Numbered from the stretch's first letter, positions 26,816 to 63,590 are shown. The stretch is DNA of 64,000 nt from Pseudomonadota bacterium (GCA_017464085.1 JAFUEE010000105.1:7214-71213), one strand, 5' to 3'. Program-made: numbers and translations. The notes: generated by a model from the sequence alone, not told the origin.

Positions 26816-27177
26816 TTGTTCCTCCTGGTCGCGAATGAAATTCTGGCATCTAAGCGAATGCCATCCGCGTCAGCATATCACATTTTAAGGTGTATAGAGA
26901 AATGGTTTGTGTATGGGATGCCGGGGGAAAGTGGGGCGGCGCGTATCGCCGGAGGCGAAAGCGTCCGCCAGGCCGGCGTATGCCGCAGGCATAGCCGGCG
27001 GAAAGCGATGAGAAAGGGGGGGGATTGTGCGGGGAATGAGAAAAATAAAGTTGCGCGCTTGCGTAATGTGTCTGAAATTATTATAATGTTGCGCCATAAT
27101 TTTATGGCCGTCCTGGTCGGGGGAGGGCGGCCTCTGGATATTGGGTCATAGCGAACATTTTAATATTGAGGACACAC

Positions 27178-30100: not shown

Positions 30101-30747
30101 CGCTCGATCCGAGTGACGACTATGCGCGCGATACCGACGGCGATACGATTCCCGATGATACCGAGAACAAGAACGGCACGGATCCCAACAAGATCGACTC
30201 CGATGGCGACGGCCTCTGCGACGGCTCGGTCACGATTCCGCCGTGCGTGGGCAACGAAAATCAGTACGGCACGGATCCCCACAATCCCGATACGGATGGC
30301 GACGGCATCAGTGACGGCACCGAAGTGTCCGGCCAGAACCCGACCAACCCGACCAATCCCGACACGGATGGCGACGGCCTCTGCGACGGCGCCAATACTG
30401 TGGCTGACCACTGCATCGCCGGGGAGGACAAGAACAACAATGGCCGCGTCGATGAGGGCGAAACCGACCCGAACAAAGCCGATACGGACGGCGGCGGCAT
30501 GTGGGACGGCGCTGAGGTCATGCAGGGCAAAGATCCTCTGCGCGCCTGCGATGATACGGGCGTCTGCGAAGGCGATGACAACGGCAATGGCGGCCATCGC
30601 GGTGCCAACGAATATGCGGACGACGACTGCGCCTGCCAGTCGGTCATGTCACAGAAACGCTCGCACTTCCCGGCTCTTGCTTCGCTCTTTGCGATGATCG
30701 GCGCCGCGTTCCTCGGCCTGCGCCGCAGACGCGACGACCGCGGTTAA
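27178..30747 (+). CDS. Large secreted protein: N-terminal beta-rich domain, Myxococcus cysteine-rich repeat, ~23 thrombospondin type-3 repeats, MYXO-CTERM-like tail
   Basis: ATG at 27178 after GAGGA (the track ORF starts at an upstream TTG). CGNRRVDQGEGCDDGNLANGDGCDAHCQVE matches the TIGR02232-type repeat. Many D.DGDG(L/I)(C/K/S)DG.E loops. The C-terminus has a Cys pair, a hydrophobic helix and RRRRDDRG, which is MYXO-CTERM-like. Confidence 0.75.
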   Translation: MNKKLAFMLAALAMAPATAHAQDIKPIFSETMAGKMVVTGNTLGLSGPSSNCQGTTDGIGTFISMDPNSRDLSPACTSGTAWGLGTTSEWLSNGSEAVLDLPKDAVVKRAELIWAANYQYNANDVSAYYKTRAVKLVALDKNNKTMSVSPADSKKVDYSDWAHYYVNHADVTSFINSNGGGRYAVGGVPALQIGYNSIGAGWTLAVVYESDDTTMRNITLYVGDRFVPEEATMDYSVTGFCAPDSGTVKGNMFVSALEGDARSDSNYIGDSFLVGSNAGDLKTVSGPNNAPNNFFASQINGSDGTLDIRGSFGTSNHYVNPSSGVATLRAGARQGWDITTLPLSGEITHGMSRALLRVNSKKDSLVPTLVGFEINVNAPNFNGSTISLSNGMPLPGQSFKANLNLTNKDGSADAVNTTATFYLSNEIEVRSNGIYCQADANYDYLKKCTVSIGKIAYGDSRKQSIDLYLPEDAVNASNHGYFLIYADIDYDYSSCSGGEVLSGGFISDAGMRWDWAYPDISTAISKEDLGDGRTEYTVTITNNGKGDAEGLTFDLDFDTSKVNYVPGSLKIDGQNQNDNSGNSKFFNEAKINGGLLESGDNLVITFVLETVVTPSNVNDEIVINVSATADPDGSTSPLPGSTASISTSVGSCGNRRVDQGEGCDDGNLANGDGCDAHCQVESGWACVEVDSNNNRICADLQGNKQNCITIPEYHGCGEDRDGDTIPDDLEPQICITNNNCLDPRNPDTDGDGLKDGTEVFGDNPTNPLDPDSDGDGLCDGSKTVGNECKSGEDKNDNGRIDPGETDPTDWDTDKGTVGDGVEVLDQHTNPLDPSDDVNKDTDGDTIPDEVEIQIGTDPQKWDTDGDGLCDGSVAIKDCVGGETEHGTDPLNGDTDGDGILDGTEVAGENPTKPLNPDTDGDGLCDGSNTVQGVCIAGEDKNNNGALDPGETDPNERDTDHGGVDDGTEVKRGTDPLDPSDDYARDTDGDTIPDDTENKNGTDPNKIDSDGDGLCDGSVTIPPCVGNENQYGTDPHNPDTDGDGISDGTEVSGQNPTNPTNPDTDGDGLCDGANTVADHCIAGEDKNNNGRVDEGETDPNKADTDGGGMWDGAEVMQGKDPLRACDDTGVCEGDDNGNGGHRGANEYADDDCACQSVMSQKRSHFPALASLFAMIGAAFLGLRRRRDDRG

Positions 30748-30837: not shown

Positions 30838-30934
30838 TTCCTGTGCCTATAGGGATTGCGGAAACTGCTGATTTTGTCTAATATAAGCGACCGGTTATGT
30901 TCGAAAATCTTTGGTAATATTGGCATCGGAGGAA

Positions 30935-33900: not shown

Positions 33901-34288
33901 GAATACTTCAGGCGCGGGAGCTGGCGGGCAGTATTCTGGAGGCAGCGGCAGGAAAGGCACGGATGCGCACAGCGCGACTTCTGGCGGCAGCCTTAACAGC
34001 TGCAATAATGGCAAGGGCGGATGTGGCTTTGGGGAGCCGTCTGCCAAGGCGGATGGCGTCCGGAGAGGCGGCGGCGGCGGCGGCTGGTTTTCAGGGCTTG
34101 CAGGACAGGATACGAATGTCTCCGGCGCGGGAGGATCCAGCTATATCCATGGCTATACGACCTCGAGCAGCAGGTGTCAGCTCAAGGATACGGTGATCAA
34201 GTATTATACCAACGGAAACTATGGAATCGGGGCCGCGAGGGATACTGACGGTTCCGCGAGCATCAAGGTGTATCCGAAAGAGATATAA
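30935..34288 (+). CDS. Giant lipoprotein with ~8 tandem ~110-aa beta-sandwich repeat domains and Gly-rich C-terminal domain
   Basis: Lipobox WASGC. Repeats share ..V.F.P.NW...Q.I.V.G.DD...DGD... signatures (Calx-beta/cadherin-like). C-terminal ~350 aa is Gly/Ser/Tyr-rich with GGGGGGG runs. The internal segment ~32700-33500 is markedly AT-richer. Confidence 0.65.
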   Translation: MMKKPVFIFPLLLAWASGCALDTVNRPELLISPIDDEDPSGLSAVLLEDDVAHERSFSFSLYLTRKPSSDVTVRISSDISGEVSILDEVRVFTPENYDMIQSVRVAGMMDSRVDGDCSVRILFDMSSEDAVYDGRRLERKVSVTDIDKVGIELSHDSLETDENGKSVNVRARLASIPYASVTVPLMLSDPDEAVLSVERLVIEPEAWQAEQIVTIKGLPDNRKDGNKKYLLEFGAAESEDEHYSGFQLDALELTNMDVNRAGVEVTAEHSLATTEAGGSASVEVSLASEPSSDVTMLVSVSDDTEAEVSPTEIVFTPDNWYERQKITVTGRDDSESDGDQSFMLVFSPLASLDLNYGGIVPDPIEMKNIDNDKAGIDIRPVPLSCEEGAMLRVSAQLRTMPQNPVTLRPVITDSDGRETDEASIAGDAVELSYAQADYNQPQEFDIQCLTDDVVDGDQVWRLSFAVTSDGADYSDPDQNFSVEGRTVDVDKGGFEVQCDRYDIQEGEEISCQVVLNSKPQNAVTIHVESSDQEYGVQVSGAPGIVFEANDPEWNSGKTFSFIGSTDDVVDGTKNVRLSFTSDSEDSNFLIDSENGRVIDVTVTDINDNKIVIMDGYDLVLNEKDISLHEIRLKLLGKPDKDVFVKAVLSGNDIKMSEQIMTIHPEDWNKETVFKYSTVDNSVADNDRTATIVFETLSNDPKFNNLTAKSELISIIDDETSNLKMTVKSSIYKVSCKYNNGGNSNGPVGELKLTLNAQPKKDVKFVLTLRDKDGNVLTKNKDDVSLGDAGRAVFTTKNWNTGISVSIYAPNELSKPDKAYYENVYVTADVLDASGTGYENFKFGNSQRVFALQAFCDPKGFVYQGKASEVSLPRGYYEMEVKGAGGGSYDTGGSSYYSYGGVGARAHAVFALKLAQKVYVTVGGKGSTCYNGRSGGGYNGGSCGSCGLTFWGYGGGGATDIRIGANSYASRVIVGGGGGGGLYIDLAKYKNTSGAGAGGQYSGGSGRKGTDAHSATSGGSLNSCNNGKGGCGFGEPSAKADGVRRGGGGGGWFSGLAGQDTNVSGAGGSSYIHGYTTSSSRCQLKDTVIKYYTNGNYGIGAARDTDGSASIKVYPKEI

Positions 34289-34545
34289 CGACGGGCGTAT
34301 CGCCGAAAGGCGATAGCACGGCGCTGGCGGCGCGTATCGGCCGAAAGGGCGATAGCGCCGCGCTCGAAATGAAATATATATATGTATTAAAATGTAAAAT
34401 TCTGTGTTGTTTTGAAATAAATGATAATATTTAAACGCTTTAAAAAATTATTTTTTTATAAGTGCCCCGACATTTTGCATCTTGCGCGATTTGGGAATAA
34501 CAAGCAAAAATAAGGATGTCTGCAGAAGTGCCGGCGTCTTAGGTA

Positions 34546-35679
34546 TTGTTCCATGGTCCATTTCATTCGGATAGTTTACCACAGATGACAGTCAGCAAAA
34601 TTGTGCGTCTTCCGGCGCATGTCAAAAGCGCTTATGAAGCGATCAGCGCGCCATTTGATTCGTGTTTTGTGCCCAGGGGGTTCCTTTTTCCGGAGTCCCG
34701 TGAGGATCTTGCGCCGTATCGGGAGTTTCCGCTTTCGGAGCCGTTTTATATCTCCCCGCAGAAGCCTTCGGATCAGTCGGTGGACGACATCTTCAAGGTC
34801 AGAACGGATGAGTCGGAGGATGATTCGGACTCGAACTGTTTTGACTCGACGATCTTGCATATCAGCGAGCTCGACGAGCTTCTGCTTGACGTGCAGGCGA
34901 TGGGGATGCAGTACACGATGCATACGCAGATGAGCCTTCGCCGTGACCTGACGTATGATTTTCCGAAGACCTGGGACAAGACGCAGGCGCTTCTGACGGA
35001 TATTCCCGTGTTTTCGGAAGAGCTCTGCCAGTGGCATTACCCGATTTCGACGATGGGGTACAACATCGCGAACACGGATCCGCCGATCGACATCGACACG
35101 TCGCACAATTACCCGAAGCTGTTCGGGTATCTGCCGAACGGCGATATTGCGGTGTACTGGGAGATTGCGGAGATTTTGGTCCGCGAGTTCGGCATCGAGG
35201 TGGACACGATGCTCGCGCGTGTGGACGGGACGCTGATCCTGATGCCCGGTGCTGCGGAGCAGATCAAGGAGATGGCGCCGTGCGACTGCGTGGTGGACAC
35301 GGGGATCGCGGTCGATCCCGGGGATGATGCAGAGCCCGCGATTGCGTTTGCTCGCCAGTGGCTCCAGAAAGAACCGGTCGTGCTCAGGCATGCGACATAT
35401 CCATTTTACAGGCTGATTCTTCCGGTGATACACTGCGAGCTTGACTTCAACCCATACGCCGAGGCAACCTGGGGGGCGTTCGGCTATTCTTCGCCAAGGC
35501 TTTCGGGTTATGAGTTCAAGATTGTCAACAACCCGTTCACGCGCGACGTGCCGATTTTCGCGACGGAGCGCGGCAATGTGGTCGTGTCGCTGAAATTCTA
35601 TGAGCGGCTGAGCGCGCTCTTGAGGCAGTTCGGCATGCCGTTCGATGCGCAGCTGTTCCCCATCCAGCGCATTCCGTGA
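34546..35679 (+). CDS. Hypothetical cytoplasmic protein (first gene of 4-gene operon)
   Basis: 377 aa with no signal peptide and no recognisable motif. Stop overlaps the start of the next gene. An AT-rich (~80% AT) promoter-like tract at 34370-34470 lies upstream. Confidence 0.5.
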   Translation: MFHGPFHSDSLPQMTVSKIVRLPAHVKSAYEAISAPFDSCFVPRGFLFPESREDLAPYREFPLSEPFYISPQKPSDQSVDDIFKVRTDESEDDSDSNCFDSTILHISELDELLLDVQAMGMQYTMHTQMSLRRDLTYDFPKTWDKTQALLTDIPVFSEELCQWHYPISTMGYNIANTDPPIDIDTSHNYPKLFGYLPNGDIAVYWEIAEILVREFGIEVDTMLARVDGTLILMPGAAEQIKEMAPCDCVVDTGIAVDPGDDAEPAIAFARQWLQKEPVVLRHATYPFYRLILPVIHCELDFNPYAEATWGAFGYSSPRLSGYEFKIVNNPFTRDVPIFATERGNVVVSLKFYERLSALLRQFGMPFDAQLFPIQRIP

Positions 35680-35747
35680 CGGGGAGCCGTGTTTCAGTGC
35701 GGCGCGCACGGGGGGCGCCTGAAGACAACAAAAATTCGGAGAGATAC

Positions 35748-37088
35748 ATGTACAGATGCTTAGCAGCCGCACTGATGTTGGTCGCGGGCTTGATGTCCGG
35801 GTGCGGCAATAGCCAGGAAAGTGGCGCGTCACAGAAAGCAGATGCGAAGCCGGAGGCGCAGCAGAAGGCCGAGGTTTTGGCGCAGAAGCCTGAAGAACAG
35901 AAGGCAGCCGATGATGCGCGGAAAGACGAAAAATCTGCCCAGAACGAAGGCGAGGCGCCCGATGAGGCGGCGGAAGCATTTAAGGATGCAGTCCGCGAAG
36001 GCGTTGAGGCTGGCGTGAATGATGTGCTCAATGGCGTGGCGGCGCCTGTCGTGGCCGTGAAGTCGCTTGAGCTCGACGAGAGCGTCGTGAAGGATATCGC
36101 GCGCGTCGGTGTCGCGGAAAAGGCCGATGACCCGAACGTCAATGCGCACCGGATCGATTCGCTCGACTCGCTGAGCGATGCTCAGGCAAAGCTGCTGGAT
36201 TCGATCACCTGGGATGTCGATCCCGAGGTGCTGAATGCCGTGCTCCAGGAAAATGAAGGGCAGCACTTCATGTACAGCGACGAGCTTCACCCGGAGCTTT
36301 TCTACGACACGATCAAGGATATGGGCGGGACGTATATCGGCATCGGCTCTGACCAGGGGTATCTGTTCACGGGGTGGCAGCATCCGACGCTTGCTTTCCT
36401 CGTCGACTACGATCCGTGGATTGTCGTCCAGCACAAGGTATATATGGCATTCTGGCGGTCATGCGAGGACAGCGCGTGCCTTCTGCGCCTGTTTGACGAC
36501 CGCGAAGCCGGGCTGGCGTTCCTGACCGGCGAAGCCGGCATCGCAGCCGGCCTCAGCGACAAGGACACGCAGAAAATCTATCGCGCCGGCCGCATGAGCG
36601 TGGCGAAACGCCTTCGGGCGATACGGAAAATGCCGCAGCCGACGTTCATGAATGACCCGGAGATGTTCGGCTATATCAAAAATCTGATCGAAACCGGACG
36701 CCTGCGCACTTTTCAGGCAAATCTTTTGGGCGATCTTGCGTTTAAATCTGTTGCGGACACGCTCAATGCCTTGGGCGCGAAAGTGACGACGCTGTATCTG
36801 TCGAATGCGGAGCAGTACTGGCCATATTCGAAGCAGTTCAAGGCAAACATGCTCGGTCTTCCGGCGGCGGAGAATGCGCTGATCATGCGGACGAGCGCCT
36901 CGAAGCCGATCAACGAGGATTATCGGTACAGCGTTCAGCCGATGCACGTGTTCAAATCCTGGCTGGAGCATCCCAAGGGCAATAACGTGCGCGCGGTCAC
37001 GAAGCGCGTCCGCGTCAAGGATGCGGAGGATTTCCCGTTTACAGTCGATGACGTGATGCCGCCTGCTGGGGAGGAGGATAAGAAATGA
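35748..37088 (+). CDS. Lipoprotein with charged low-complexity N-terminus and alpha/beta C-terminal domain (hypothetical; weak SAM-MTase-like G-x-G-x-x-x-G)
   Basis: Lipobox LMSGC after GGAGAG. KPEAQQKAEVLAQKPEEQKAADD linker. YIGIGSDQG...AFLVDYD is only weakly methyltransferase-like, so treat as unknown. Confidence 0.5.
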   Translation: MYRCLAAALMLVAGLMSGCGNSQESGASQKADAKPEAQQKAEVLAQKPEEQKAADDARKDEKSAQNEGEAPDEAAEAFKDAVREGVEAGVNDVLNGVAAPVVAVKSLELDESVVKDIARVGVAEKADDPNVNAHRIDSLDSLSDAQAKLLDSITWDVDPEVLNAVLQENEGQHFMYSDELHPELFYDTIKDMGGTYIGIGSDQGYLFTGWQHPTLAFLVDYDPWIVVQHKVYMAFWRSCEDSACLLRLFDDREAGLAFLTGEAGIAAGLSDKDTQKIYRAGRMSVAKRLRAIRKMPQPTFMNDPEMFGYIKNLIETGRLRTFQANLLGDLAFKSVADTLNALGAKVTTLYLSNAEQYWPYSKQFKANMLGLPAAENALIMRTSASKPINEDYRYSVQPMHVFKSWLEHPKGNNVRAVTKRVRVKDAEDFPFTVDDVMPPAGEEDKK

Positions 37089-37981
37089 GACGTGTCGCAT
37101 GGATGATCGGTCTGATGATGATGTTTTCGGGGCTGGCATTTGCACAGGAGCCGTGCCCGTCCGAAGCGCCTGAAATCCAGAAGCCCGCTGACCCGAATGA
37201 GAAGTGCAGGCCGGACCTGACGAATGACGCGCCGGTGCTCTTCGTGTTCCCTGAGGACGACAAGAAGCCCGCAGAAGATGCCGGCAGGAAGCCCGCAGAA
37301 GACAGAAATCCCGATGGCGCGAAGCAAGTCCGCGCATCACAGACGCCTGCGGATGCCGTGCGGAAGCTGCCCGAGACATGCACCTATAAGGCGTATGCCT
37401 GGGACACTAAAAAAAAACGCTCGACCGATCATTTTACCGTTTCCAAGCCCTATCGCGACGTGACCGATGACGAGCGCGACCCGAATGCGCCGCAGTGCAC
37501 GATCTGCAGTGAGGATCAGGTCACGATTGATCCCGCTGAGTTCGGGGTAAAGGCAGATGTGATCCGCATCTGCCATGTGTATGCGCCGCAGGTGCGTCAA
37601 GCGCTCGAGGCGATTGCAAAGTCAGGGGCGTTCGATATCGAAAAGCTCGAGGGATACAGGCCCGGCAGGACGCGCGGAAAAATCGACAAGAACGGCCTGC
37701 GCACAGAGTGGAGCAACCACAGCTTTGGCGCGGCGATCGACATCAATGCGCATCGGAACGCGATATACAGCAGCTGTCCCGATAAAATTGTCGGCCATGC
37801 CTCGGATGTCAAGAACTGCAAAAAAGGGATCGGCGGCGCCTATATGCCGGAAAAACAGCCGCGCGTCTCGATCACCAGGGACAGCGTCGTCTACCGGGAG
37901 ATGACGAAGTTCTGGAAGTGGGGCGGGGAAATCGAGGGGACGACGAAAGACATCATGCATTTTTCGATCACGGGGTATTAG
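37085..37981 (+). CDS. Secreted peptidase M15 family (VanY/D-Ala-D-Ala carboxypeptidase-like)
   Basis: Signal peptide present. Zn-binding motifs SNHSFGAAIDIN (H..G.A.D) and DIMHFS. Start overlaps the upstream stop (ATGA). Confidence 0.65.
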   Translation: MRRVAWMIGLMMMFSGLAFAQEPCPSEAPEIQKPADPNEKCRPDLTNDAPVLFVFPEDDKKPAEDAGRKPAEDRNPDGAKQVRASQTPADAVRKLPETCTYKAYAWDTKKKRSTDHFTVSKPYRDVTDDERDPNAPQCTICSEDQVTIDPAEFGVKADVIRICHVYAPQVRQALEAIAKSGAFDIEKLEGYRPGRTRGKIDKNGLRTEWSNHSFGAAIDINAHRNAIYSSCPDKIVGHASDVKNCKKGIGGAYMPEKQPRVSITRDSVVYREMTKFWKWGGEIEGTTKDIMHFSITGY

Positions 37982-37984
37982 GGG

Positions 37985-38374
37985 ATGTATGTTTCCATAT
38001 TGGCCCTGCCGTTTGTGATGGCTGGCATGAGCGTCGTCAATCTCGCTTTTGGGCCTGCAAGGACGCGGGATATGACGCATCGGGTGGCTGATGTTCTGCG
38101 CGCGTGCGTGCCAGCTCGCGATATCGGGCTTGAGCCTGACGATATGCGTTGCGAGCTGCGCCTGATCGAGCGCTGCAAACGCCCTCCGAGAATTGCCTGC
38201 TTTGAAACGGCGTGCGCATTCGACTTGTGGCTGGCGGCGCACGGGCAGAAAGCTGAGGTCTGTATCGGCAAGCGCATGGTGGGCGGACGGATCCGGATGC
38301 ATGCGTGGGTGGCGACTGATCCGGTGCCTTTTTTTTATGACGGACGTTTCGAAGAGGTCTGGAAAAACCACTGA
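37985..38374 (+). CDS. Transglutaminase-like superfamily small protein (PF13471 / lasso-peptide B2-like fold)
   Basis: 129 aa. RIACFETACAFDLWLAAHGQKAEVCIGKRMVGGRIRMHAWVATDPVPFFYD matches the C...riGv...HAWVe...D pattern of microcin J25 McjB/B2-like Cys proteases. No B1, C or precursor genes nearby. Confidence 0.55.
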   Translation: MYVSILALPFVMAGMSVVNLAFGPARTRDMTHRVADVLRACVPARDIGLEPDDMRCELRLIERCKRPPRIACFETACAFDLWLAAHGQKAEVCIGKRMVGGRIRMHAWVATDPVPFFYDGRFEEVWKNH

Positions 38375-40551: not shown

Positions 40552-40884
40552 GTCTGTTGTGTGGGCAAGCGCTATCGGCCGCTGGCCGATACGCGCTGCT
40601 GATGTCATCGCTATCGGCCGCTGGCCGATACGCGCTGACCAGGATATTTTGGGGGGCTGCGCAGATATCGCCGGGCTGCGTCATCTCGCTGGGCCGTCGT
40701 GCTTGTATCCTGCCAATTTCTCAAAACATCTGTTTCTTAAAAATGGCCATCTGTCAAGGCAGAGGGCTTTGCGCACGCTGCTGGAATGCTTCAGGTAGTA
40801 CTTTGGCGTGATTGGTGAAAAAATACTTTAAACCTGCTTTAATTCCAACTAGAGTACACAAGGGCTCTTTTGGCGGAGGTCTTT

Positions 40885-42339
40885 ATGAGAAAAATAGGAT
40901 TCCTGCTTCTTTCAGCATTCGCGGTCATGAGTCTTGGATGCGATGACAAGGGCATGACCATTGGTTCTGGAGAATGTCTGAGCAGTAAGGATTGTCCGCA
41001 TCCGACGCTGTATAAGTGCGTGCACACGCTGGGTGTTTGCGTGGAAGCCAACCCCGGCCACTGCTTTGACTATGTCCAGAACGAGGACGAGACAGATGTG
41101 GATTGCGGCGGCGTGTCATGCGAGGCCTGCGCGGAAGGAGCGATGTGCGGTTCGAATGGGGATTGTGTCTCCGGGCTTTGCGAGGAGGGCCAGTGTGTGT
41201 CCGTGGCGTGCGATTCAGACGACAAGTGCGCGGAGAGCGGCGGCCACAGCTGCAACCTGGATACGCATACCTGCAATACGTGCAAAGACGGGACGATGAA
41301 TGGCGCGGAGACCGCAAGAGATTGCGGCGGTCCGTGTGACAAATGCGGTCCCGGCCTCGGGTGCAGGGCGGATTCGGACTGCCTCTCTGGATCATGTGAA
41401 AGCGGGGTCTGCGGCGATTCGATGTGCCACAGCGACGGGGAGTGCCCCGACCGCTATATGTGTGATCCGGGCGGCATCTGCATCGCGTGTATCGACAACA
41501 TCAAGAATGGCACTGAGACCGATACGGACTGCGGCGGAAGCAGCTGTCCTGCATGCGCGGAAGGCAAGGCTTGTGCCGGAAACAGCGACTGCCAGACGGG
41601 CAATTGTGAAAGCGGCATCTGCAAGCCGAAAGTCGATCTGTGCAAGAACGGCGCGCAGGATCCCGGGGAGTCCGATGTGGATTGCGGCGGCCCTTGCGAG
41701 CAGTGCGGCGTGGGCAAGAAATGCGGCTCGGAAAAAGACTGCACCTCCTGGATGTGCCAGGAGGGCACTTGCCAGGGCGTGGCCTGCGAGACGGTGATCG
41801 CGAACGAGGTCCTGATCAATGAAGTGTTCACGAATCCGGACACAGGGGCTGCGATGCACCATTCGAGCAGCAAGCAGATGAAGTATATTGAACTCTATAA
41901 TTCGAGCGCGAAGCGCGCGAACATTGGGGAGCTTCACATTGCGGTCAGGAAAGCTGATGGAAGCACCGGCCGTATCTCGCTGGCAGGCTGTCTGGATGCC
42001 AAACGCTATCTGATCCTTTATCCGCAGGGCGAAAAGCTCGAAGCGCTTGATCTGGATGCCATTTCGGTAGCTTCTGCGGAAATTTCGAGTGCGATTGACA
42101 GCGCGGCGGCCTTTAAGGTCGAGCTCGTCAACACGCGCAGCAGCGTGGCCGTTCACAAGGTTCAGCTGCCTGATATGAGCGCGAAGAAGGGCATTTCGGC
42201 GGCTCGCCCGGCAGCGCCGGCAGTCAACGAGGGGGCTGAGGTCTTTGTCGAGCACAGTGCGATCAAGGCGGATGACGGCACGAGCGAGAATCCGTACAGT
42301 CCGGGGCTTTCCAACAGCATTGGCGTGCCGATGGGATAA
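40885..42339 (+). CDS. Cys-rich lipoprotein (6x DCGG..C..C..G..C..N.DC.SG.C..G.C repeats) with C-terminal Lamin-tail domain (LTD)
   Basis: Lipobox SLGC after GGAGG. Six ~40-aa Cys repeats. C-terminus VLINEVFTNPD....MKYIELYNSS matches the LTD consensus (INEV...D..EFIELYN). Confidence 0.7.
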   Translation: MRKIGFLLLSAFAVMSLGCDDKGMTIGSGECLSSKDCPHPTLYKCVHTLGVCVEANPGHCFDYVQNEDETDVDCGGVSCEACAEGAMCGSNGDCVSGLCEEGQCVSVACDSDDKCAESGGHSCNLDTHTCNTCKDGTMNGAETARDCGGPCDKCGPGLGCRADSDCLSGSCESGVCGDSMCHSDGECPDRYMCDPGGICIACIDNIKNGTETDTDCGGSSCPACAEGKACAGNSDCQTGNCESGICKPKVDLCKNGAQDPGESDVDCGGPCEQCGVGKKCGSEKDCTSWMCQEGTCQGVACETVIANEVLINEVFTNPDTGAAMHHSSSKQMKYIELYNSSAKRANIGELHIAVRKADGSTGRISLAGCLDAKRYLILYPQGEKLEALDLDAISVASAEISSAIDSAAAFKVELVNTRSSVAVHKVQLPDMSAKKGISAARPAAPAVNEGAEVFVEHSAIKADDGTSENPYSPGLSNSIGVPMG

Positions 42340-42441
42340 TCGTCTGATAGCAAGCGGGCCTGAAACTTGGCGTTCAGGCCGTTTCTCTGATAGTTTTTGC
42401 AGGCTCATCCGGGCCTGCTTCTTTGTGATTCGAAGAGGGGG

Positions 42442-42507
42442 TAGCTGCGTATTTTCCGGCAAGCGGAATGGCCGCTTGCCGGAAAATAGCCGCGCAGGGG
42501 GAGTCTT
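42442..42507. repeat. Composite hairpin repeat (15-bp perfect stem + GGGGGA-gtct-TCCCCC), copy 2 of the element at 3467-3517
   Basis: ttttccggcaagcgg-aatggc-ccgcttgccggaaaa then atagccgcgcagggggagtcttccccctccc. The reverse complement of 3467-3491 matches 42483-42507 with 1 mismatch. Confidence 0.6.
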
Positions 42508-42568
42508 CCCCCTCCCATAAAAATGCCATTCGGGCATTTCTTTCAGAAACGGTGTGGTGATATCATTC

Positions 42569-42754
42569 ATGAAAAGATGTTTTCTTCTTTTGTTTGTGTT
42601 GTTTGCGGGCGTGTCGGCGTGCAGTGATGACACGGAGACGGTGACGATGTGTGACTGCCGTGAGGATGAATATTGTCGTGACGACAAATGTTACGAGACG
42701 GATGCCGATATCGCGCCGGCTCCCGATGAGGGTGAAACGCAAAATGACAATTGA
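42569..42754 (+). CDS. Small secreted lipoprotein (61 aa, hypothetical)
   Basis: MKRCFLLLFVLFAGVSAC signal with lipobox. Cys-rich acidic mature peptide. Overlaps the coaD start by ~11 nt. Confidence 0.4.
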   Translation: MKRCFLLLFVLFAGVSACSDDTETVTMCDCREDEYCRDDKCYETDADIAPAPDEGETQNDN

Positions 42755-43271
42755 CACGGGGGCGTCAGAGGCTTTTGGGCGGCAGGATGACCGTCTGGCG
42801 GTGTATGCTGGCACGTTTGATCCGCCGACGTTCGGCCATATCGATCTGATCCGTCGCGCATCGAGGTCGTTTGGGCATGTCATCGCCGCGATCGGCGTCA
42901 ATCCGGGCAAGAAAGTGATGTTCTCGACGGATGAACGGCTGGGGTTTCTTCGGACGGCGCTTGCCGATCTTCCGAATGTGTCATGCAGTGCGTATTCGGG
43001 GCTTCTCGTCGATTACTGCCGCCAGGTCAATGCGCGTGTCATCATTCGCGGCCTCAGGGCGGTCGCGGACTTTGAATATGAATTTCAGATGGCGCTTGCA
43101 AACCGAGATCTGGCGCCAGAGATTGAGACAGTTTTTCTGATCGCGGCGACGGACAAGCTCTTTCTGTCGAGCTCTGTGGTCAAAGAAATCGCGTCATACG
43201 GGAGAGATGTTTCGCAGTATGTGCCCCCGTGTGTCGCAGAGGCGATTCATAATTATTATCATAAGGAATGA
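42744..43271 (+). CDS. coaD: Phosphopantetheine adenylyltransferase
   Basis: AVYAGTFDPPTFGHIDLI (T/HxGH nucleotidyltransferase motif). ~175 aa. The ATG at 42744 is chosen over upstream in-frame Mets. Confidence 0.85.
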   Translation: MTIDTGASEAFGRQDDRLAVYAGTFDPPTFGHIDLIRRASRSFGHVIAAIGVNPGKKVMFSTDERLGFLRTALADLPNVSCSAYSGLLVDYCRQVNARVIIRGLRAVADFEYEFQMALANRDLAPEIETVFLIAATDKLFLSSSVVKEIASYGRDVSQYVPPCVAEAIHNYYHKE

Positions 43272-43274
43272 GCG

Positions 43275-45335
43275 ATGAATGCAGCGCAGTACCTCGAGAA
43301 GCGATACGGTCTACTTTGTGAGCTATGCGATCAGGCGGCATCCGGCGCGCCAGGTGCTGCGGGGCGATATCTGGAAGGCGTTGCCGCGCTTGACGGGGCT
43401 TGTGATGGCGCGGTGCCGTTCCGGCAGGTCGTTGCGGACTTTCGGCTGACTGCGTTCGAGGCTGATGTGGTGTTCCTTTCGCTTGCGCCGTCTTTGGATG
43501 CGAACTTTCGCCAGAAGATTGCGAAACTTCGCCAGAATTTTGCGTTTTCTCAGCCCGATGTCGGTCTGGCGCTTGAGCTGTTCAGCCCGGATTTTGCGTC
43601 AAAGATTGAGAATCGTCAGGCATTTGCGCCTGCCGGCGCGCTGATCGCGCATCATCTGATCGAGCTCATGCCGAAATTTGGCGCGGAGACGCAGCTTCAG
43701 GATATGGTGCTGGTGCTGCCGTCGCGCGTGGAGTGTCATCTTCTCGGCATCGCGGCTGACCTCAATCTGGACGGCTTCAGCCGGCTGTTCTACCCCAGGA
43801 CGACAGTCGATCAGGTCATGATGGGGGAGAAGTACAAAAAGCAGATCATGACGCTCGTGACGCAGTACGAGAATTGTCTGAAGCTCAAGGATGCGTGTCA
43901 TTTTGAGGAGATCGGCGGCGGCGGCCGCAACCTGATTTTGCTGTTCAGCGGGCCATCCGGGACGGGCAAGACCTTGATGAGCCAGGCGGTGGCCAATGCG
44001 CTTGGTCGCCCGCTGCTGCTCGTGGATGCGCATGAGCTTGAGGCGAAGCGCAGTCTTGAGGACAATCTTGACCTTTTGATGCGCGAGGCACGGCTTCAGC
44101 GCGCGGTGCTCCTGTTTGATGACTGCGAGCTGATCTTTGCGTCGAGGACGCAGGGCAACCGGGATCTGCCGCTGCTGCTTGCGGCGCTTGATGCATACGA
44201 AGGAATCGTCATATTGACGACGAATCTGCCCGGGGCGCTCGATCCTGCGCTCGACAGGCGCGTGACGCTGCAGATTGATTTTGAAATTCTCCCCGTCCGG
44301 CTTCGCGAACAGATCTGGCGGCTGCATCTGCCTCAGAATGTCAGGCTCTCTGAAGATGTCGATCTGCACAGGCTTGCGGACAAGTATGAGTTTTCCGGCG
44401 GGACGATCCGGAACTCGGTGGCTGTGGCGCTCAATCGCGCGCTCGCGGAATGTGACGGCGGCGAACTCGTCCTGACCATGCACACGCTTGAGGAGGCGGC
44501 CAAAACACAGATCAGGAACAAGATAAGGAAGCTGGCGGACAAGACGCTGACGACGCTGACGCTGGATGACCTGATTCTGCCCAAAAAAGTCAAGCATCAG
44601 ATCAACAGTCTGATTGCATCTGTGCGCAATCGCCGCACGATCTTTGAGGAATGGGGATTTGGGGAAAAGATCACCAAAGGGCGCGGCATCTGCGCGCTGT
44701 TTCGCGGTGATTCAGGCACGGGCAAGACTTTGTCGGCGGAGATCATTGCGAACGAGCTCGGCATGACGCTTTATCGCGTGCGCATTCCGGCGATTGTCTC
44801 TAAATATGTGGGGGAGACGGAGAAGAATCTTGAAAAGTGTTTTCGTGAAGCAGCCGCAAGCGGCGCGCTTCTGCTCTTTGACGAGGCGGATTCGATTTTT
44901 TCCAAGCGCACCGAAGTCAAGGATTCGAACGACAGATATTCCAACATGGAGGTCAATCTGCTCTTGCAGGAAGTCGAGCGTTTTGAAGGTGTCGTGATTT
45001 TGACGACAAATCTGGATGCGGCGATTGATGATGCATTTGAGCGCCGATTAAATCACAAGATCGATTTCCCGTTCCCAGAGGCGAGATATCGCGCCAAGAT
45101 CTGGAAGAGCCTGCTGCCGGCGACCGCCCCGCTTGCGGAGGGGATAGATTTCGAGACGCTCGGCCGGGATCTGGAGCTTTCTGGCGGCTGTATCAAGAAC
45201 TCGGTGGTTCGGGCGGCGTATCGCGCTGCGGAGCGCAATATTCCGATAGACATGGATCTGCTCGAGGCAGCCGGCATTCAGGAATACCGTGAGATGGGCA
45301 AGCTTGTTCCCAATCGGAACAATCCGTGGGACTGA
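43275..45335 (+). CDS. Tandem AAA+ ATPase (two classic-clade AAA domains) with ~220-aa N-terminal domain
   Basis: Walker A GPSGTGKT and GDSGTGKT. Walker B LLFDDCE and LLFDEAD. Both domains followed by TTNL...DPALDRR / DDAFERR arginine-finger regions. 686 aa. Confidence 0.8.
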   Translation: MNAAQYLEKRYGLLCELCDQAASGAPGAAGRYLEGVAALDGACDGAVPFRQVVADFRLTAFEADVVFLSLAPSLDANFRQKIAKLRQNFAFSQPDVGLALELFSPDFASKIENRQAFAPAGALIAHHLIELMPKFGAETQLQDMVLVLPSRVECHLLGIAADLNLDGFSRLFYPRTTVDQVMMGEKYKKQIMTLVTQYENCLKLKDACHFEEIGGGGRNLILLFSGPSGTGKTLMSQAVANALGRPLLLVDAHELEAKRSLEDNLDLLMREARLQRAVLLFDDCELIFASRTQGNRDLPLLLAALDAYEGIVILTTNLPGALDPALDRRVTLQIDFEILPVRLREQIWRLHLPQNVRLSEDVDLHRLADKYEFSGGTIRNSVAVALNRALAECDGGELVLTMHTLEEAAKTQIRNKIRKLADKTLTTLTLDDLILPKKVKHQINSLIASVRNRRTIFEEWGFGEKITKGRGICALFRGDSGTGKTLSAEIIANELGMTLYRVRIPAIVSKYVGETEKNLEKCFREAAASGALLLFDEADSIFSKRTEVKDSNDRYSNMEVNLLLQEVERFEGVVILTTNLDAAIDDAFERRLNHKIDFPFPEARYRAKIWKSLLPATAPLAEGIDFETLGRDLELSGGCIKNSVVRAAYRAAERNIPIDMDLLEAAGIQEYREMGKLVPNRNNPWD

Positions 45336-45336
45336 G

Positions 45337-46389
45337 ATGCTGTATGCGCTTTTAAACAGGCTGATCCGATATGCTGTGAATCATGGCGTGCCGCCAGAGC
45401 GGATCTTGTCGCGCGCGCGCGCGTGCGGCATCTTGCCTTATCTGTATGCAGGGATTCGTCAGAATCATATCTTGTGTTCGGAGATGGGCTTGCCGGAAGC
45501 CTTGTTGAATCGCCAGATTTCGGCATTTCGGATAGAGCAGACGGCTCGTTTGGGGCTTTGGTATTATTCGCTCGGGGAGATTGTCCGTGCGATCGGGGAA
45601 GAGCATATCGTGCTCAAGGGCGCGCCATTGGGGCAGGTGCTGATGTCGGATGCGCTTTGGCGCGGCACTTCGGATATCGACATTTGGGTGCCGTATGACC
45701 AGCGCGAGCATGTGCAGAAATGCTGTCAGTCTCTCGGGTATGAAGTGGGGGCCGAGCCGCATCTCTGGGCGACGAATCAGATGATTCTCAAGCACAAAAG
45801 GCTTGTGCCCGTTGAGATACATTGGGCGCTTGCGCCGCAGCCCTGGATTTCTCCGTCATTTGAGGAAGCCTTTGCGCGTTCGCGAATGATTGATTCCGCG
45901 CGCGGGCAGGCCGTTCGGATCTTGGGCGATGCGGATCTTTACTTGAATCTTCTCGTGCATGCGCATCAGCATTATTTTTCGCTCAAGACACTGTGCGATC
46001 TCGCGATTGCCCAGGAAAAGCTTGATAAGCCCGAAGCGCTTCTCGCGGCATGTCATCTTCGGAAGCTTGACAGATTTGTCGTGGATCTGTTCGGCGCGCT
46101 TCTTTCGGAAGGGGGAGGGGCGAAGTCGTATCTGGCGCATCTCTGGTTTGATTCGCTTCTGTCGGATACCCGTCGCGGGACAATGGTGTTTGCCGAAGGG
46201 GATGCGCGCTATGCCGCGCCAGGCGTTGCGCTTCGCGCGATATCCATGTGTCTGCTGGATGGGACTGCGATTTCGGCGGATGCAGCGCTTCAGGTCATCT
46301 TTTGCGGTCCGCATTCCGTGGGGCGGATCTGCCATGCGCCCTATCGCGCGTTGCGTCGGGTGTGCGGGCCGGTCATCGGCATTGAATGA
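45337..46389 (+). CDS. Nucleotidyltransferase-fold protein (PF14907-like uncharacterised NTase)
   Basis: HIVLKGAPLGQVLMSDALWRGTSDIDIWVPYDQ...LGYEV...VEIHWAL fits the G-S...D.D / h.H pattern of the minimal NTase fold. Start is 2 nt after the AAA+ stop. Confidence 0.6.
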   Translation: MLYALLNRLIRYAVNHGVPPERILSRARACGILPYLYAGIRQNHILCSEMGLPEALLNRQISAFRIEQTARLGLWYYSLGEIVRAIGEEHIVLKGAPLGQVLMSDALWRGTSDIDIWVPYDQREHVQKCCQSLGYEVGAEPHLWATNQMILKHKRLVPVEIHWALAPQPWISPSFEEAFARSRMIDSARGQAVRILGDADLYLNLLVHAHQHYFSLKTLCDLAIAQEKLDKPEALLAACHLRKLDRFVVDLFGALLSEGGGAKSYLAHLWFDSLLSDTRRGTMVFAEGDARYAAPGVALRAISMCLLDGTAISADAALQVIFCGPHSVGRICHAPYRALRRVCGPVIGIE

Positions 46390-46496
46390 GGGGATTTACC
46401 CCGGACGGCTCTTAGAAAAATTGGCATTCTGTAGGGAAATGTGTTATTATTTTAATCTCGCATGTGCGAGTGGGATAAGAACTTTAGGAGGAAAAC

Positions 46497-46916
46497 GTGG
46501 ATAAGCTTCAGGTGCTTCAAGACGCAGAAAAAAAAGGTGGCAAAGCGCGACGTGATGCCATCGAAAAACTGATGATTTTTGCCCGTGAAAAAGGGTGCAA
46601 TATCGAAGCTGGTGGCGGTCGCATCGGCGGTATCAATTTCCGCTATGGCGGTATCGGTTATGCCATTATGGATATCAGTACGGAAGGTGATGTCAAGCTC
46701 TATGCGCAGCCTCATCCGAACAAAACTGCCCCGGAAGCGCTTAGTAACACGATCAACAAATATCTGGCCGATAACGATGAAAAGCTCAAACTGAAGAGTC
46801 ATCCGATTAACTGTCACGGCCTGCTCAACCAGAAAGTTGAGGAGATTGAGCGCTCTGAGTTGATCAGTTTCTTTGAAGTCGCGCTCAAGGCGATCAAGGA
46901 TACGTATTATTCCTGA
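46497..46916 (+). CDS. Hypothetical small protein (139 aa), lower-GC
   Basis: GTG start after TAGGAGGAAAAC. Gly-rich loop GGGRIGGINFRYGGIGYA. Followed by terminator hairpin 46937-46964. Confidence 0.5.
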   Translation: MDKLQVLQDAEKKGGKARRDAIEKLMIFAREKGCNIEAGGGRIGGINFRYGGIGYAIMDISTEGDVKLYAQPHPNKTAPEALSNTINKYLADNDEKLKLKSHPINCHGLLNQKVEEIERSELISFFEVALKAIKDTYYS

Positions 46917-46936
46917 TATTTCAGGATTTACATTTT

Positions 46937-46964
46937 AAAGCCTCTCGCAAGAGAGGCTTTTTTT
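46937..46964 (+). terminator. Rho-independent terminator
   Basis: aagcctctc-gcaa-gagaggct followed by tttttttt. Confidence 0.75.
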
Positions 46965-47194
46965 TGGCTCTGTTGGCTTCAGACGGGCGAATATGGGGTA
47001 ATCCTCCCCGCGTGCGCCTTCGCGGCTTTCCCCGGGCTGTGTTCGCTGTCGCCCTTTCAGGGCGATTGATATACAAGTCGCTCAGCTTTCCCGCCGCGAC
47101 ACGATGCAATGCCGCGCCTATTTTGCCCACTTTCAGGGCGATTGATATACAAGTTGCCAGCATTGCTTTCCCATATCCATGTTGGCGACAGAGC

Positions 47195-47228
47195 CAAAAA
47201 AAAGCCGCCCAATGGGCGGCTTTTAGAA
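47195..47228 (-). terminator. Rho-independent terminator for the ompA-family gene (bidirectional A8/T4 flanks)
   Basis: aaaaaaaagccgcccaatgggcggctttt. On the minus strand it reads hairpin then T8. Confidence 0.75.
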
Positions 47229-47242
47229 CTGATCAGTTCTGA

Positions 47243-49108
47243 TTATTTTTTCTTGTTTTCGGCTTCTGCGGCTTTGGCTGATTCTTCTTTGCTCAGAACT
47301 TTGACATCATCGCGGGTATAGCCGGCCTCTTTGGCTTCGCGAATGGTCATGGTCTTTTTGACCTCATCCTGCTCAAGGATGTTGAAGACGACGCGGCGGT
47401 TCTTGGCTGCCTGTTCGGCCGTCTCTTTCTTCTGGCCCGGCTGCAACGGCTCGACCGGCTGGGTCATGCCATAACCTTTGTAGGTCATGCGATCTTTTTC
47501 GACGCCGAGTTTGATGAGGCGGTCATAGACGGATTTGGCGCGGTCATTCGAGAGCTTGAGGTTCTTCTTGGCATTGCCGCTGAGGTCTGTGTGGCCCTGG
47601 ATCTCGACTTTCTTGATCTGGGGGTTGTTCTTGAAGACGCCAGCGATTTCTTCGAGGAGGCTGTCAGAAGATTTCTGAATGGTGGCCTTGTTGAGACCGA
47701 AGTTGATGGCTTCGTTGATTTCGATCTTGTCAGCGGTGACTTCGACGCGGCGTTTGATGCAGCCCTTGGCGTCATCGCCTTTTTCGTTCGGGCAGACATC
47801 TTTGCCTTTGCACTGCGGGAAGACAGACGCGAGGTCGTTGTCATAGACCCAGGCATCGCAGAAGCCGTCCTCATCGGGATCGGGATTCTCGCAGCCCTTG
47901 AACTTGTCAGAGGCATGATAGTTCGGGCAATAGTCGATGTCTTTGCAGACGCTGGCATATTTGCTGGAGAGACCTTTCGCGGAGACCCAGGGATCGCGGA
48001 GGCCGTCGCCATCGTTATCGGGATCGGGGCAGCCGTCATCATCGATATTGCCGTCGAGATCTTCGGCTTCGCCGGCGCATTTGTCAGAGCCCTTGCATAC
48101 GCTGGCATATTTGTCCGCAAGACCTTTCTCGGAGACCCAAGGATCGCACACGCCGTCGCCGTCGTTATCGGGATCGGGGCAGCCATCTTCATCTTCAAAG
48201 CCATCGACATCTTCGGCTTCGCCGGTGCATTTGTCAACGCCCTTGCAGGTGCTGGCGAACTGATCGCTGAGGCCTTTTTCGGAAACCCAGGGATCGCAGT
48301 AGCCGTCGCCGTCGCTGTCAGGATTCGGGCAGCCGTTGAATTCTTTGCTGCCTGATTCGTCTTTGCAGTCATCTACGTCATCAAGGACGCCGTCGCCATC
48401 GCTGTCGCCGATATGAACGACCGGGGTTTCATAGTTGCCGAAACGGATACCGACGGCGATGTTCGGACCGGCATACGAAAGCTTGTCGGTGTCGATCTGA
48501 TTGTCGGTGTCGCGCGCTTTGGCATAATCAGACGGCTCAAGGCCGAACTCTTTATAGTAACCGAATGCGATGCGGAGATAAATCGCAAAGATGTCTGCCG
48601 GATAAAATCTCGCTTCGACGAACGGACGGACCAAAAGACCGTGGCCTTCCATTTTCGCATTGTCGTTGTCCAGCCAGGTCTTGCCATAGCCCAGGCCGAT
48701 ACCGACTGCAAATTCATAGAATGAACGGCGGACGCTGAATGCAGGCTCGATACCGCCATAGCCATAGTTGAAGCCTGTGTTCGAAATGTACAGAGACTGG
48801 AAGCCGCCGAATGCGCTCAAACGGAAACCTTCGACCGGCGTCACTTCGACGTACAGCTCATGTTCGGCGACGAAATTCGCATCAAAATAATTCTGTTTCG
48901 CAGGAATCAGAAGATAGTCATTCCAATTCTGCATATCAGTAAAGGTCAGGCCATACTGGAGACCGATACCCCACGATGGCTTGAATGCATAGGAGCCATC
49001 TGCACTTGTGCGCGCTTTCGCATCACTGCTGGAATCTTCAGCGACTGCATTCGTTGAAAAGAGCATCAACAGCGCGGCAGCCATCAAAAAGCGAAATTTT
49101 TTAGCCAT
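47243..49108 (-). CDS. OmpA-family outer membrane protein with thrombospondin type-3 repeats
   Basis: Signal peptide, N-terminal beta-strand-rich region, D.DGDG..D repeats (DSDGDGVLDDVDDC, DPDNDGDGVCDP ...). C-terminal OmpA-like domain GHTDLSGNAKKNLKLSNDRAKSV. Confidence 0.85.
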   Translation of the reverse strand: MAKKFRFLMAAALLMLFSTNAVAEDSSSDAKARTSADGSYAFKPSWGIGLQYGLTFTDMQNWNDYLLIPAKQNYFDANFVAEHELYVEVTPVEGFRLSAFGGFQSLYISNTGFNYGYGGIEPAFSVRRSFYEFAVGIGLGYGKTWLDNDNAKMEGHGLLVRPFVEARFYPADIFAIYLRIAFGYYKEFGLEPSDYAKARDTDNQIDTDKLSYAGPNIAVGIRFGNYETPVVHIGDSDGDGVLDDVDDCKDESGSKEFNGCPNPDSDGDGYCDPWVSEKGLSDQFASTCKGVDKCTGEAEDVDGFEDEDGCPDPDNDGDGVCDPWVSEKGLADKYASVCKGSDKCAGEAEDLDGNIDDDGCPDPDNDGDGLRDPWVSAKGLSSKYASVCKDIDYCPNYHASDKFKGCENPDPDEDGFCDAWVYDNDLASVFPQCKGKDVCPNEKGDDAKGCIKRRVEVTADKIEINEAINFGLNKATIQKSSDSLLEEIAGVFKNNPQIKKVEIQGHTDLSGNAKKNLKLSNDRAKSVYDRLIKLGVEKDRMTYKGYGMTQPVEPLQPGQKKETAEQAAKNRRVVFNILEQDEVKKTMTIREAKEAGYTRDDVKVLSKEESAKAAEAENKKK

Positions 49109-49537
49109 AATACATCCTAAGTTAGGCCCTTCTCTCAGGGCGTTGAAAGCTATGTTCGTTTACGGTCCGCCAATAAAATCTAACATTTTCGCAGGTTTCC
49201 GGCCAAAATCGGCACAAGGCGAGCCAACATGGTTGGCTTATTTACTATCTTTTAGGGGATTTAACAAGTATCAGACCTATTATTTTATGCATGCGATGCC
49301 CCAAAATGCGACATCCCGGCATGCTTTTGGGAGACGGCTTCAAATTTGTCTGCATCATGGATGGCGCGCGGATTTGTGGGGCGACGGCTCTGACTGCGTC
49401 ATACGCCTGCGCGCCGTCTGCTTTGACTGCGTCATACGCAGACGGTTTGCGGGCTATCGGCCTGCGTCCGATACGCCCGCAATGCTGCAATCTTTGGCGT
49501 GTGCGCTTGAGGCTTGTGGTTGAGCCGGCAAGGCATG

Positions 49538-63468: not shown

Positions 63469-63481
63469 GGAAAGGGTAACA

Positions 63482-63554: not shown

Positions 63555-63590
63555 ATGGCGTATTGCGAAAGAGTTTCGCAACGGCGGCGG

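Follow-up and report, generated by a model that had tools for sequence, protein, structure and literature searches.

To our knowledge, ATPases of the Pvc15/Afp15 type are known solely as loaders of contractile injection systems (CIS), and they are under engineering for protein delivery; for nucleotidyltransferases (NTases) of the kind considered below, we know of functional data on PsmN only. Pvc15 consists of an N-terminal domain (residues 1-205) followed by the domains D1 and D2, of which D2 is the sole active ATPase, and its loading of effectors via their N-terminal signal peptides needs all three domains (PMC11495950). What Pvc15 recognises is a disordered signal peptide (PMC12210884). PsmN is needed for the lasso peptide pseudomycoidin to receive one or two hexoses on its phosphorylated C-terminal serine, the D134A/D136A mutant of the enzyme is inactive, and the authors of that work reported the ANT(2'') structures 5cfs and 4xje as the nearest folds (PMC6993621); NTases of lasso clusters are sometimes fused to B2 (review, PMC8498205). 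In this study, we analyzed a stretch of 64 kb from a Pseudomonadota bacterium (GCA_017464085.1 JAFUEE010000105.1:7214-71213), hereafter the window, within which all coordinates are given unless a relative's locus is named, and in which a gene encoding a Pvc15-type AAA+ ATPase is immediately followed by a gene encoding an NTase of the Pfam family PF14907 (NTP_transf_5). Both families are known; the arrangement, in which the Pvc15-type ATPase keeps D1 intact, has no injection system nearby and is locked to a PF14907 partner, is undescribed, and the ATPase-NTase pair itself is uncharacterised and lineage-restricted. The features of the operon are as follows.

42783..43271, plus strand: coaD, pantetheine-phosphate adenylyltransferase, at the head of the operon in this lineage (TIGR01510, 190.8 bits, cutoff 103.3).
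43275..45335, plus strand: three-domain AAA+ ATPase of the Pvc15/Afp15 (Cis15) type, 686 aa (PF22977 and two PF00004 matches).
43275..43919, plus strand: N-domain of the ATPase, aa 1-215, containing a winged-helix variant at aa 47-161 (PF22977, E 1e-18).
43920..44549, plus strand: AAA domain D1, about aa 216-425 (PF00004; motifs in alignment A4).
44550..45335, plus strand: AAA domain D2, about aa 426-686 (PF00004; motifs in alignment A4).
45337..46389, plus strand: PF14907 (NTP_transf_5) nucleotidyltransferase of an AAA-linked divergent subfamily, 350 aa (Pfam, 94.5 bits).

The three genes are closely packed: the distance from the end of coaD to the start of the ATPase gene is 3 nt (the mechanically called open reading frame (ORF) of coaD begins at 42651, its likely start lying near 42783), and 1 nt separates the ATPase stop codon from the NTase ATG. 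A sequence-only reading of this locus had measured the latter gap as 2 nt and had described a candidate system of three genes, comprising a 686-aa protein with two AAA domains behind an N-terminal domain of unknown function, a 350-aa PF14907-like protein of the minimal NTase fold, and a small downstream ORF of 139 aa. The double AAA architecture is borne out by the two PF00004 stretches, and the NTase assignment is upheld by a PF14907 score far above the family threshold and by invariant DxD motifs, and the protein matches no housekeeping family. The N-terminal domain contains the winged-helix variant PF22977. Of the proposed triad, the ATPase and NTase genes are tightly linked in about a dozen relatives with differing flanks, and the third gene proved to be unrelated, as described below.

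Searches of protein, genome and metagenome data yielded about a dozen distinct loci carrying the pair, from gut and other metagenome-assembled genomes (MAGs) titled Proteobacteria, Myxococcota, Myxococcales UBA4248 or Bradymonadales. The ATPase gene lies directly upstream of the NTase gene in every informative locus, that is, wherever the contig extends upstream of the NTase (L001-L012, L017-L021), and the ATPases of the pair loci are 64-93% identical to that of the window; the two genes are conserved as neighbours in other genomes, within one lineage. The distance from the ATPase stop to the NTase start is 1-11 nt in most loci, 32 nt in one, and 221-332 nt in L010, L017 and L018. In these last three, the spacer (5645-5976 in L017) is full of GC-rich inverted repeats and hairpins, and might represent either the insertion of a repeat element or a structure with a regulatory role. 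Synteny of the core genes extends to all close relatives, and coaD precedes the ATPase gene in the gut-lineage loci L003, L004, L008, L010, L011 and L017-L019; in L012, from Bradymonadales, this upstream position is occupied by a gene for a 362-aa family-less protein, not coaD. Homology between the upstream genes of L012 and of the NTase-less locus L036 was considered and rejected. Downstream of the pair, some loci have the 139-aa gene and an OmpA-family gene, L012 has a Ser/Thr kinase gene, and L017 and L018 carry others.

Beyond this lineage, no NTase gene adjoins the ATPase orthologues at 63, 60, 58, 57, 49 and 47% identity. In the NTase-less loci L036 (9304-10089) and L040 (8063-8860), a conserved gene encoding a protein of 261-265 aa without a Pfam family lies directly downstream of the ATPase gene; the two proteins share 39% identity (E 2e-61), are helix-rich with a charged C-terminal tail, and may represent an alternative partner of the ATPase. 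They are not degenerate NTases, given an hhalign probability below 1%, and they form a conserved family of their own. In two independent genomes of more distant Myxococcota, the ATPase orthologue is divergently paired with a gene for a 1007-aa PDZ/Peptidase_S41 protein (L014 2076-5099, L015 4844-7867) and one for a PEGA-domain protein, neighbours that may be functionally connected with the ancestral ATPase. The simplest history is that the ATPase is old and phylum-wide, and that the NTase gene was inserted once behind it in one sub-lineage, the linkage having been kept since.

In the ATPase, the nucleotide site of D1 is intact, and both AAA domains carry conserved motifs. D1 carries Walker A at G226-PSGTGKT-233, Walker B at F281-DDCE-285, sensor-1 at N317 and arginine fingers at R328/R329, and D2 carries Walker A at G478-DSGTGKT-485, a pore loop at K510-YVGE-514, a DEAD-type Walker B at D536-E537, sensor-1 at N579 and arginine fingers at R590/R591. 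All of these motifs are invariant over twelve orthologues (alignment A4), with the D1 consensus GPSGTGKT and D[DE]CE, and no aromatic pore-loop motif was found in D1 in the same alignment. D2 is the best conserved section of the protein and is the source of its matches to IetA, TRIP13 and Cdc48. The extreme C-terminus, GKLxPxxRxPW[DE] (45270-45335), is kept in orthologues down to 45% identity and is reminiscent of the motifs by which proteasomal AAA+ ATPases dock through their C-terminus. The protein is recorded at NCBI as MBQ9243229.1, 'AAA family ATPase', and its orthologues, at 40-93% identity, are numerous in MAGs titled Myxococcota, Bradymonadales, Deltaproteobacteria or 'Proteobacteria'. 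A literature search on PF22977, PF14907 and NTP_transf_5 returned a single incidental mention.

The relationship to CIS ATPases emerged from the N-domain. A PDB sequence search with this domain gave nothing significant, and its tblastn search against plasmids led to 'ATP-binding proteins' in two injection-system clusters: one on Serratia marcescens pELP1.10, flanked by a CIS tape-measure gene and a Pvc16-family gene, and one on a Streptomyces plasmid, flanked by a DUF4255 gene and a tail-sheath gene. BLASTP aligns the window ATPase with these relatives over essentially its full length, at 31% identity (E 5e-73) and 34% identity (E 1e-79), respectively. The window protein shares with Pvc15, Afp15 and Cis15 the PF22977 winged-helix N-domain followed by D1 and then D2, and, as in Pvc15, its D2 combines a DEAD-type Walker B with a pore loop, sensor-1 and double arginine fingers (PMC11495950). 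On the basis of this domain order and end-to-end alignment, we regard it as a stand-alone relative of the CIS-loading ATPases, and its N-domain is presumed, by analogy with Pvc15, to bind a substrate or an adaptor.

Several differences set it apart from them. Both compared CIS ATPases have PF22977 and one detectable AAA domain, the Walker A of their D1 being degenerate, whereas the D1 of the window ATPase has a canonical Walker A and the D[DE]CE motif. Unlike the CIS ATPases, its gene lies outside any CIS cluster: no CIS component was found among the window ORFs of at least 150 aa picked out for the Pfam neighbourhood scan, and CIS genes were not found in eight orthologous contexts, among them L012-L015, L036, L039 and L040. 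It also differs in its housekeeping-like conservation across Myxococcota and Bradymonadales and, in one lineage, in having a PF14907 NTase as its partner in place of Pvc16 and payload genes. The comparison with Cdc48, p97 and VAT is likewise partial. These share with the window protein the type II classic-clade AAA+ organization with two rings, and Cdc48/p97 give the best sequence matches in the PDB (E 2e-37, over D1-D2); however, their N-domain is a double-psi barrel and not a winged helix, the window D1 is without the pore-loop aromatic, and TIGR01243 scores 131 bits against a cutoff of 803.

The NTase, recorded at NCBI as MBQ9243230.1, 'nucleotidyltransferase family protein', matches PF14907, and no other Pfam family, with 94.5 bits (gathering score 31.2) over model positions 5-238 of 249, and it has no match in NCBIfam or, at E 0.1 or better, in PADLOC. 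Other PF14907 members score 140-250 bits, and the low score of the window protein therefore places it in a divergent branch of the family. A profile search of 1.84 billion cluster representatives returned 15,902 relatives at E <=1e-3, which makes PF14907 a large family; with only 31 at E <=1e-30, the subfamily is small. The motifs K94-G95, D113-x-D115 and E160-x-H162 are invariant among relatives (alignments A1, A2), the assigned catalytic residues D113, D115 and E160 being intact, and H208-AHQH-212, K217, D221 and the C-terminal R300, S303, M304 and D308 are invariant or nearly so. The AlphaFold2 model (pLDDT 89, pTM 0.89) displays a Pol-beta-type core flanked by helical N- and C-terminal domains. 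A PDB sequence search with the NTase, as a single sequence or as a profile, gave nothing significant, and Foldseek against PDB gave ANT(2'')-Ia, LnuA, the MenT1 toxin and TM1012 as the nearest structures (E 8e-5 to 6e-3, 12-16% identity), the ANT(2'') entries 5cfs and 4xje among them. The window protein thus has a Pol-beta-type NTase core in common with MenT/AbiEii toxins and ANT(2'')/Lnu enzymes (Foldseek, E 8e-5 to 8e-4; target TM-score ~0.6), but identity is just 12-16%, the Pfam families are different, no antitoxin gene or resistance context accompanies it, and it has additional conserved helical domains. No PF08843/AbiEii match was found for it with Pfam or PADLOC, the likeness to MenT1 being at the level of the fold. 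The possibility that the N-terminal helices are an AAA-specific docking module was rejected, because the alignments of distant PF14907 members likewise start at about residue 10-25.

For function, the NTase can be compared with PsmN. The longer profile matches include two fusions of a lasso-B2-type transglutaminase core to PF14907 (P0232, P0242) and one Wzy_C fusion, and a B2-fused member aligns to residues 91-330 of the window NTase, including the C-terminal helical domain, at 29% identity (E 3e-17). From the B2-PF14907 fusions and the review statement on lasso clusters, we take PsmN-type NTases to belong to PF14907. On this assumption, the window NTase would share with them the Pfam family; it also shares the catalytic DxD pair and the nearest folds 5cfs and 4xje. 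Unlike the PsmN type, it has no lasso cyclase, precursor, PqqD/B1, HprK-type kinase or exporter gene beside it, and the scanned window ORFs yielded neither Asn_synthase nor PqqD nor a kinase. The distant PF14907 loci that were fetched have radical-SAM/Wzy_C, HlyD or asparagine-synthase genes as neighbours, and tblastn found no copy of the window ATPase in them; adjacency to an AAA+ ATPase distinguishes the window NTase from the other PF14907 loci examined.

The two genes of the pair evolve at very different rates. The ratio of nonsynonymous to synonymous substitutions (dN/dS) was calculated with our own Nei-Gojobori script and, because most pairs were saturated at synonymous sites, three unsaturated pairs gave usable values: 0.02-0.05 for the ATPase, about 0.08 for coaD, and about 0.21 for the NTase. 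The NTase dN is 3-7 times the ATPase dN in nearly all comparisons, and in the closest pair, L018-L010, where the ATPase dN is 0.002, the ratio reaches 23. Across loci, identities to the window proteins are 28-63% for the NTase, 64-93% for the ATPase, 73-88% for CoaD, 68-84% for the 139-aa protein and 72-87% for OmpA. The NTase falls into deep types that share ~37-44% identity where the corresponding ATPases are 75-80% identical, with two more types at ~27%. The ATPase is under very strong purifying selection, and its gene ranks among the best conserved of the neighbourhood. For the NTase, a dN/dS of ~0.21 together with the invariant D-x-D and E residues indicates a functional protein with a constrained catalytic core, which elsewhere appears loosely constrained or diversifying; the averaged dN/dS gave no sign of overall positive selection on it.

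A further gene of the window touches on the NTase through the fusions described above:

37985..38374, plus strand: lasso-B2-like transglutaminase-core protein, stand-alone, 7 kb upstream (PF13471, E 1e-9).

This protein scores 30.7 bits with NF033537, just below the cutoff of 33, and the B2-PF14907 fusion proteins align to it (E 6e-9); because such fusions exist, the stand-alone B2-like protease and the NTase may belong together, as a Rosetta-stone hint. No lasso cyclase was found in the window. The gene is the last of a tight four-gene operon (34546-38374) with overlapping or 3-nt junctions, whose products are a 377-aa family-less protein, a DUF7790/LIC_10091-like protein, a Peptidase_M15_4 protein and the lasso-B2-like Transglut_core3 protein, and which is preceded by an AT-rich stretch at ~34370-34480.

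Downstream of the pair lies the third member of the triad that had been proposed:

46497..46916, plus strand: 139-aa ORF with a GTG start, in its own transcription unit (46421..46960) outside the pair.

A spacer of 107 nt separates it from the NTase gene and contains a sigma-70-like promoter-like site, TTGGCA-18-TATTAT, at 46421-46450; an AGGAGG Shine-Dalgarno sequence lies 6 nt 5' of its start, and a terminator (hairpin and T-run) lies 3' of it at 46937-46960. An Rfam scan of 42000-49500 gave sub-threshold leader-like matches on a terminator only. The strong ribosome-binding site, the terminator and the lower GC content attributed to this ORF were all confirmed, the GC content being 47.6% (53% at third codon positions) against 55-60% (61-75%) in the neighbouring genes. 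The same offset, ~9 points below the neighbours, recurs in four relatives, and it is therefore a property of the gene and no evidence of recent transfer. The family, to which L034 7001-7420 and L035 7001-7417 also belong, comprises 67 cluster representatives at 42-100% identity from Bradymonadales-like MAGs, with a G-rich core AGGGRIGGINFRYG, an invariant GGGxxGGINxRxG and a C-terminal YY. The model of the protein is alpha/beta (pLDDT 93); Foldseek against PDB gave nothing significant for it (best E 0.03, TM-score ~0.4), and PADLOC gave no match. In other Bradymonadales, its homologues adjoin dnaB/rpoBC, or an amidohydrolase gene and an EI24-family gene, with neither the ATPase nor the NTase gene found nearby in these two contexts, and in L010, L012, L017 and L018 the gene is not beside the pair. 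Since homologues sit elsewhere without the pair and pair loci exist without this gene, it is independent of the pair, and the triad is a synteny accident of the gut clade.

The pairing of an AAA+ protein with an NTase, together with the shift in composition, had suggested a conflict or defence module, and the locus was examined accordingly. The PADLOC models IetA (E 3.5e-46, residues 404-648) and TRIP13 (E 1e-20) match the generic D2 AAA domain only, and the NCBIfam model IteA (NF042959) scores 140 bits (E 9e-41) against a cutoff of 510. The D2 of the window ATPase does resemble IetA; however, the match is limited to the D2 core and falls below the cutoff, there is no IetS-type serine protease, the neighbours of the ATPase gene being coaD and the PF14907 NTase, and the locus is not an island. 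IetA itself has one AAA domain and neither a winged-helix N-domain nor a D1. As for a CBASS-like system (cyclic-oligonucleotide-based anti-phage signalling) with TRIP13/HORMA, no SMODS-type CD-NTase (cGAS/DncV-like nucleotidyltransferase), HORMA or effector gene was found in the neighbourhood, nor was an antitoxin-like gene. The locus has no integrase and no adjoining tRNA gene, the tRNA genes of the window lying only at 63396-63555, about 16 kb from the pair, and the ATPase and NTase genes are at the genomic GC content, with no compositional break spanning the pair. With no defence model above its cutoff, a syntenic core context, and an ATPase that is phylum-wide and under purifying selection, the defence proposal was not sustained: the pair belongs to the vertically inherited core chromosome and is no mobile defence system.

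The explanation that we tentatively favour, at somewhat less than even confidence, is that coaD, the ATPase gene and the NTase gene form a vertically inherited chromosomal operon of gut-associated Bradymonadales-like Myxococcota, with an unfoldase and an NTase that modifies polypeptides acting together. The winged-helix N-domain would bind a client or an adaptor, D1 would form a nucleotide-binding ring without a translocating pore loop, and the D2 ring, with its canonical KYVGE pore loop, would thread or remodel the polypeptide. The unfoldase would thereby expose or deliver a polypeptide segment to the NTase, which would decorate it with a nucleotidyl or sugar-phosphate-type group, comparable to the action of PsmN on a peptide phospho-serine; alternatively, the NTase would mark clients for the ATPase. 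Established here are the domain architectures and homologies, the conserved pairing, the intact catalytic motifs and the unequal rates; we infer that both proteins act on one substrate, a polypeptide, and cooperation is favoured because the activity of PsmN and the domain fusions of PF14907 point to peptide substrates.

Several observations weigh against such cooperation. Both genes are vertically inherited within one lineage, and their adjacency could persist there without a functional tie; the hairpin-rich spacer of 221-332 nt in L010, L017 and L018 means that co-translation is not obligatory; and the ATPase is present without the NTase in most of the phylum. The kinase, PqqD-like and precursor-peptide genes of PsmN-type pathways were not found beside the pair. 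PF14907 also occurs in polysaccharide contexts, as a Wzy_C fusion and beside a Wzy_C neighbour, which makes a non-protein substrate possible, and, among solved structures, the closest folds belong to small-molecule NTases and to a toxin that modifies tRNA. The main rival to cooperation is therefore mere co-location, in which the NTase would be an accessory enzyme inserted behind a housekeeping ATPase gene and kept there by shared transcription and low rearrangement, the two proteins being functionally independent. We consider this rather unlikely, though it deserves serious weight: the ATPase, the ancestral member, works in most relatives with no NTase present, the upstream coupling of coaD, a housekeeping gene unrelated to the pair, is equally tight, one sub-lineage has the structured spacer between the two genes, and the rates of the ATPase and the NTase are completely uncoupled. 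Yet the pair has outlasted changes at both flanks, no member of the NTase subfamily lies away from the ATPase gene in any informative locus, and stop-to-start distances of 1-11 nt have been maintained across deep divergence.

The remaining explanations appear to us improbable to differing degrees. A conflict or anti-phage module, in which the AAA+ protein would sense or regulate and the NTase would be the effector, as in IetAS, CBASS-TRIP13 or MenT/AbiE, would account for the PADLOC matches to D2, for the fast evolution of the NTase, whose deep types share ~40% identity while the ATPases remain 75-80% identical, and for the fold likeness to MenT1 (E 5e-4); we hold it to be improbable, however, as the model matches are confined to a generic AAA core that falls well short of the IteA cutoff, neither the NTase nor the 139-aa protein has a PADLOC match, the expected IetS, HORMA, CD-NTase or antitoxin partners were not found, the syntenic core genome shows no island or mobility genes, and the phylum-wide ATPase has a dN/dS of 0.02-0.05, that of the NTase, 0.2, showing no overall positive selection. 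PVC (Photorhabdus virulence cassette) payload genes lie directly downstream of Pvc15, and the NTase gene occupies this same position behind a Pvc15-type ATPase gene; with the effector-like pace of NTase evolution and a lineage that, judged by MAG titles, belongs to a largely predatory group, this raises the idea that the stand-alone ATPase unfolds the NTase and loads it as cargo into a device for injection or secretion whose genes lie elsewhere, serving predation or interaction with a host. This seems very unlikely, slightly more so than a conflict module, since the NTase N-terminus is modelled as a folded helix bundle with pLDDT >90 from residue 1, whereas Pvc15 recognises a disordered signal (PMC12210884), no CIS structural genes were found among the scanned ORFs of the 64-kb window or in the orthologous loci, and the ATPase orthologues that lack an NTase are equally conserved. 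Least probable of all is a small-molecule, antibiotic-type enzyme like ANT(2'')-Ia or LnuA, unrelated to the ATPase: these are the best PDB folds and weak profile matches, and the organism dwells in the gut, but the query-normalised TM-score is ~0.33 at 12-16% identity over a core of only ~170 residues, the N- and C-terminal helical domains are additional and conserved, and the documented links of PF14907 are to peptide and polysaccharide pathways, with no resistance-gene context. Tagging of proteins for unfoldases has analogues in McsB-ClpC, with phospho-arginine, and in Pup-Mpa. By this analogy, the pair might constitute a modification-coupled unfoldase, cytoplasmic and independent of CIS, in which a nucleotidyl or phospho-sugar tag set by the NTase would be read by the winged-helix N-domain, or in which the ATPase would feed the NTase; we regard this specific scheme as speculative and unlikely, though less so than a conflict module, and the stand-alone B2-like protease may take part in such a pathway.

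Elsewhere in the window, Pfam assigned genes including Lon, RsmB, ABC-F, an OmpA-family protein, an L,D-transpeptidase, an efflux system and many large secreted proteins among the ORFs picked out. Large secreted or surface proteins with eukaryote-like domains are unusually dense (30911-34288, 11437-13626, 27166-30747, 8050-11421, 15714-19172 and 40870-42339), and among their domains are disintegrin, FG-GAP and bacterial TSP3 repeats, an ALK/LTK glycine-rich domain (PF12810, E 6e-28), and a lamin-tail domain accompanied by Cys-rich repeats. The 23-nt sequence TTCAGGGCGATTGATATACAAGT is repeated exactly and in direct orientation at 47056-47078 and 47132-47154, 76 nt apart, in the spacer between two convergent terminators; these are its only two copies in the window, where none would be expected by chance.

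The practical value of these findings is modest until an activity is demonstrated. That a PF14907 clade is locked to an unfoldase points to a substrate of protein or peptide nature, and the pair offers a defined two-gene system in which to find it. The conserved stand-alone clade with an intact D1 would indicate a cellular role of Pvc15-type ATPases outside injection systems, and it could indicate the ancestral function of this group of ATPases.

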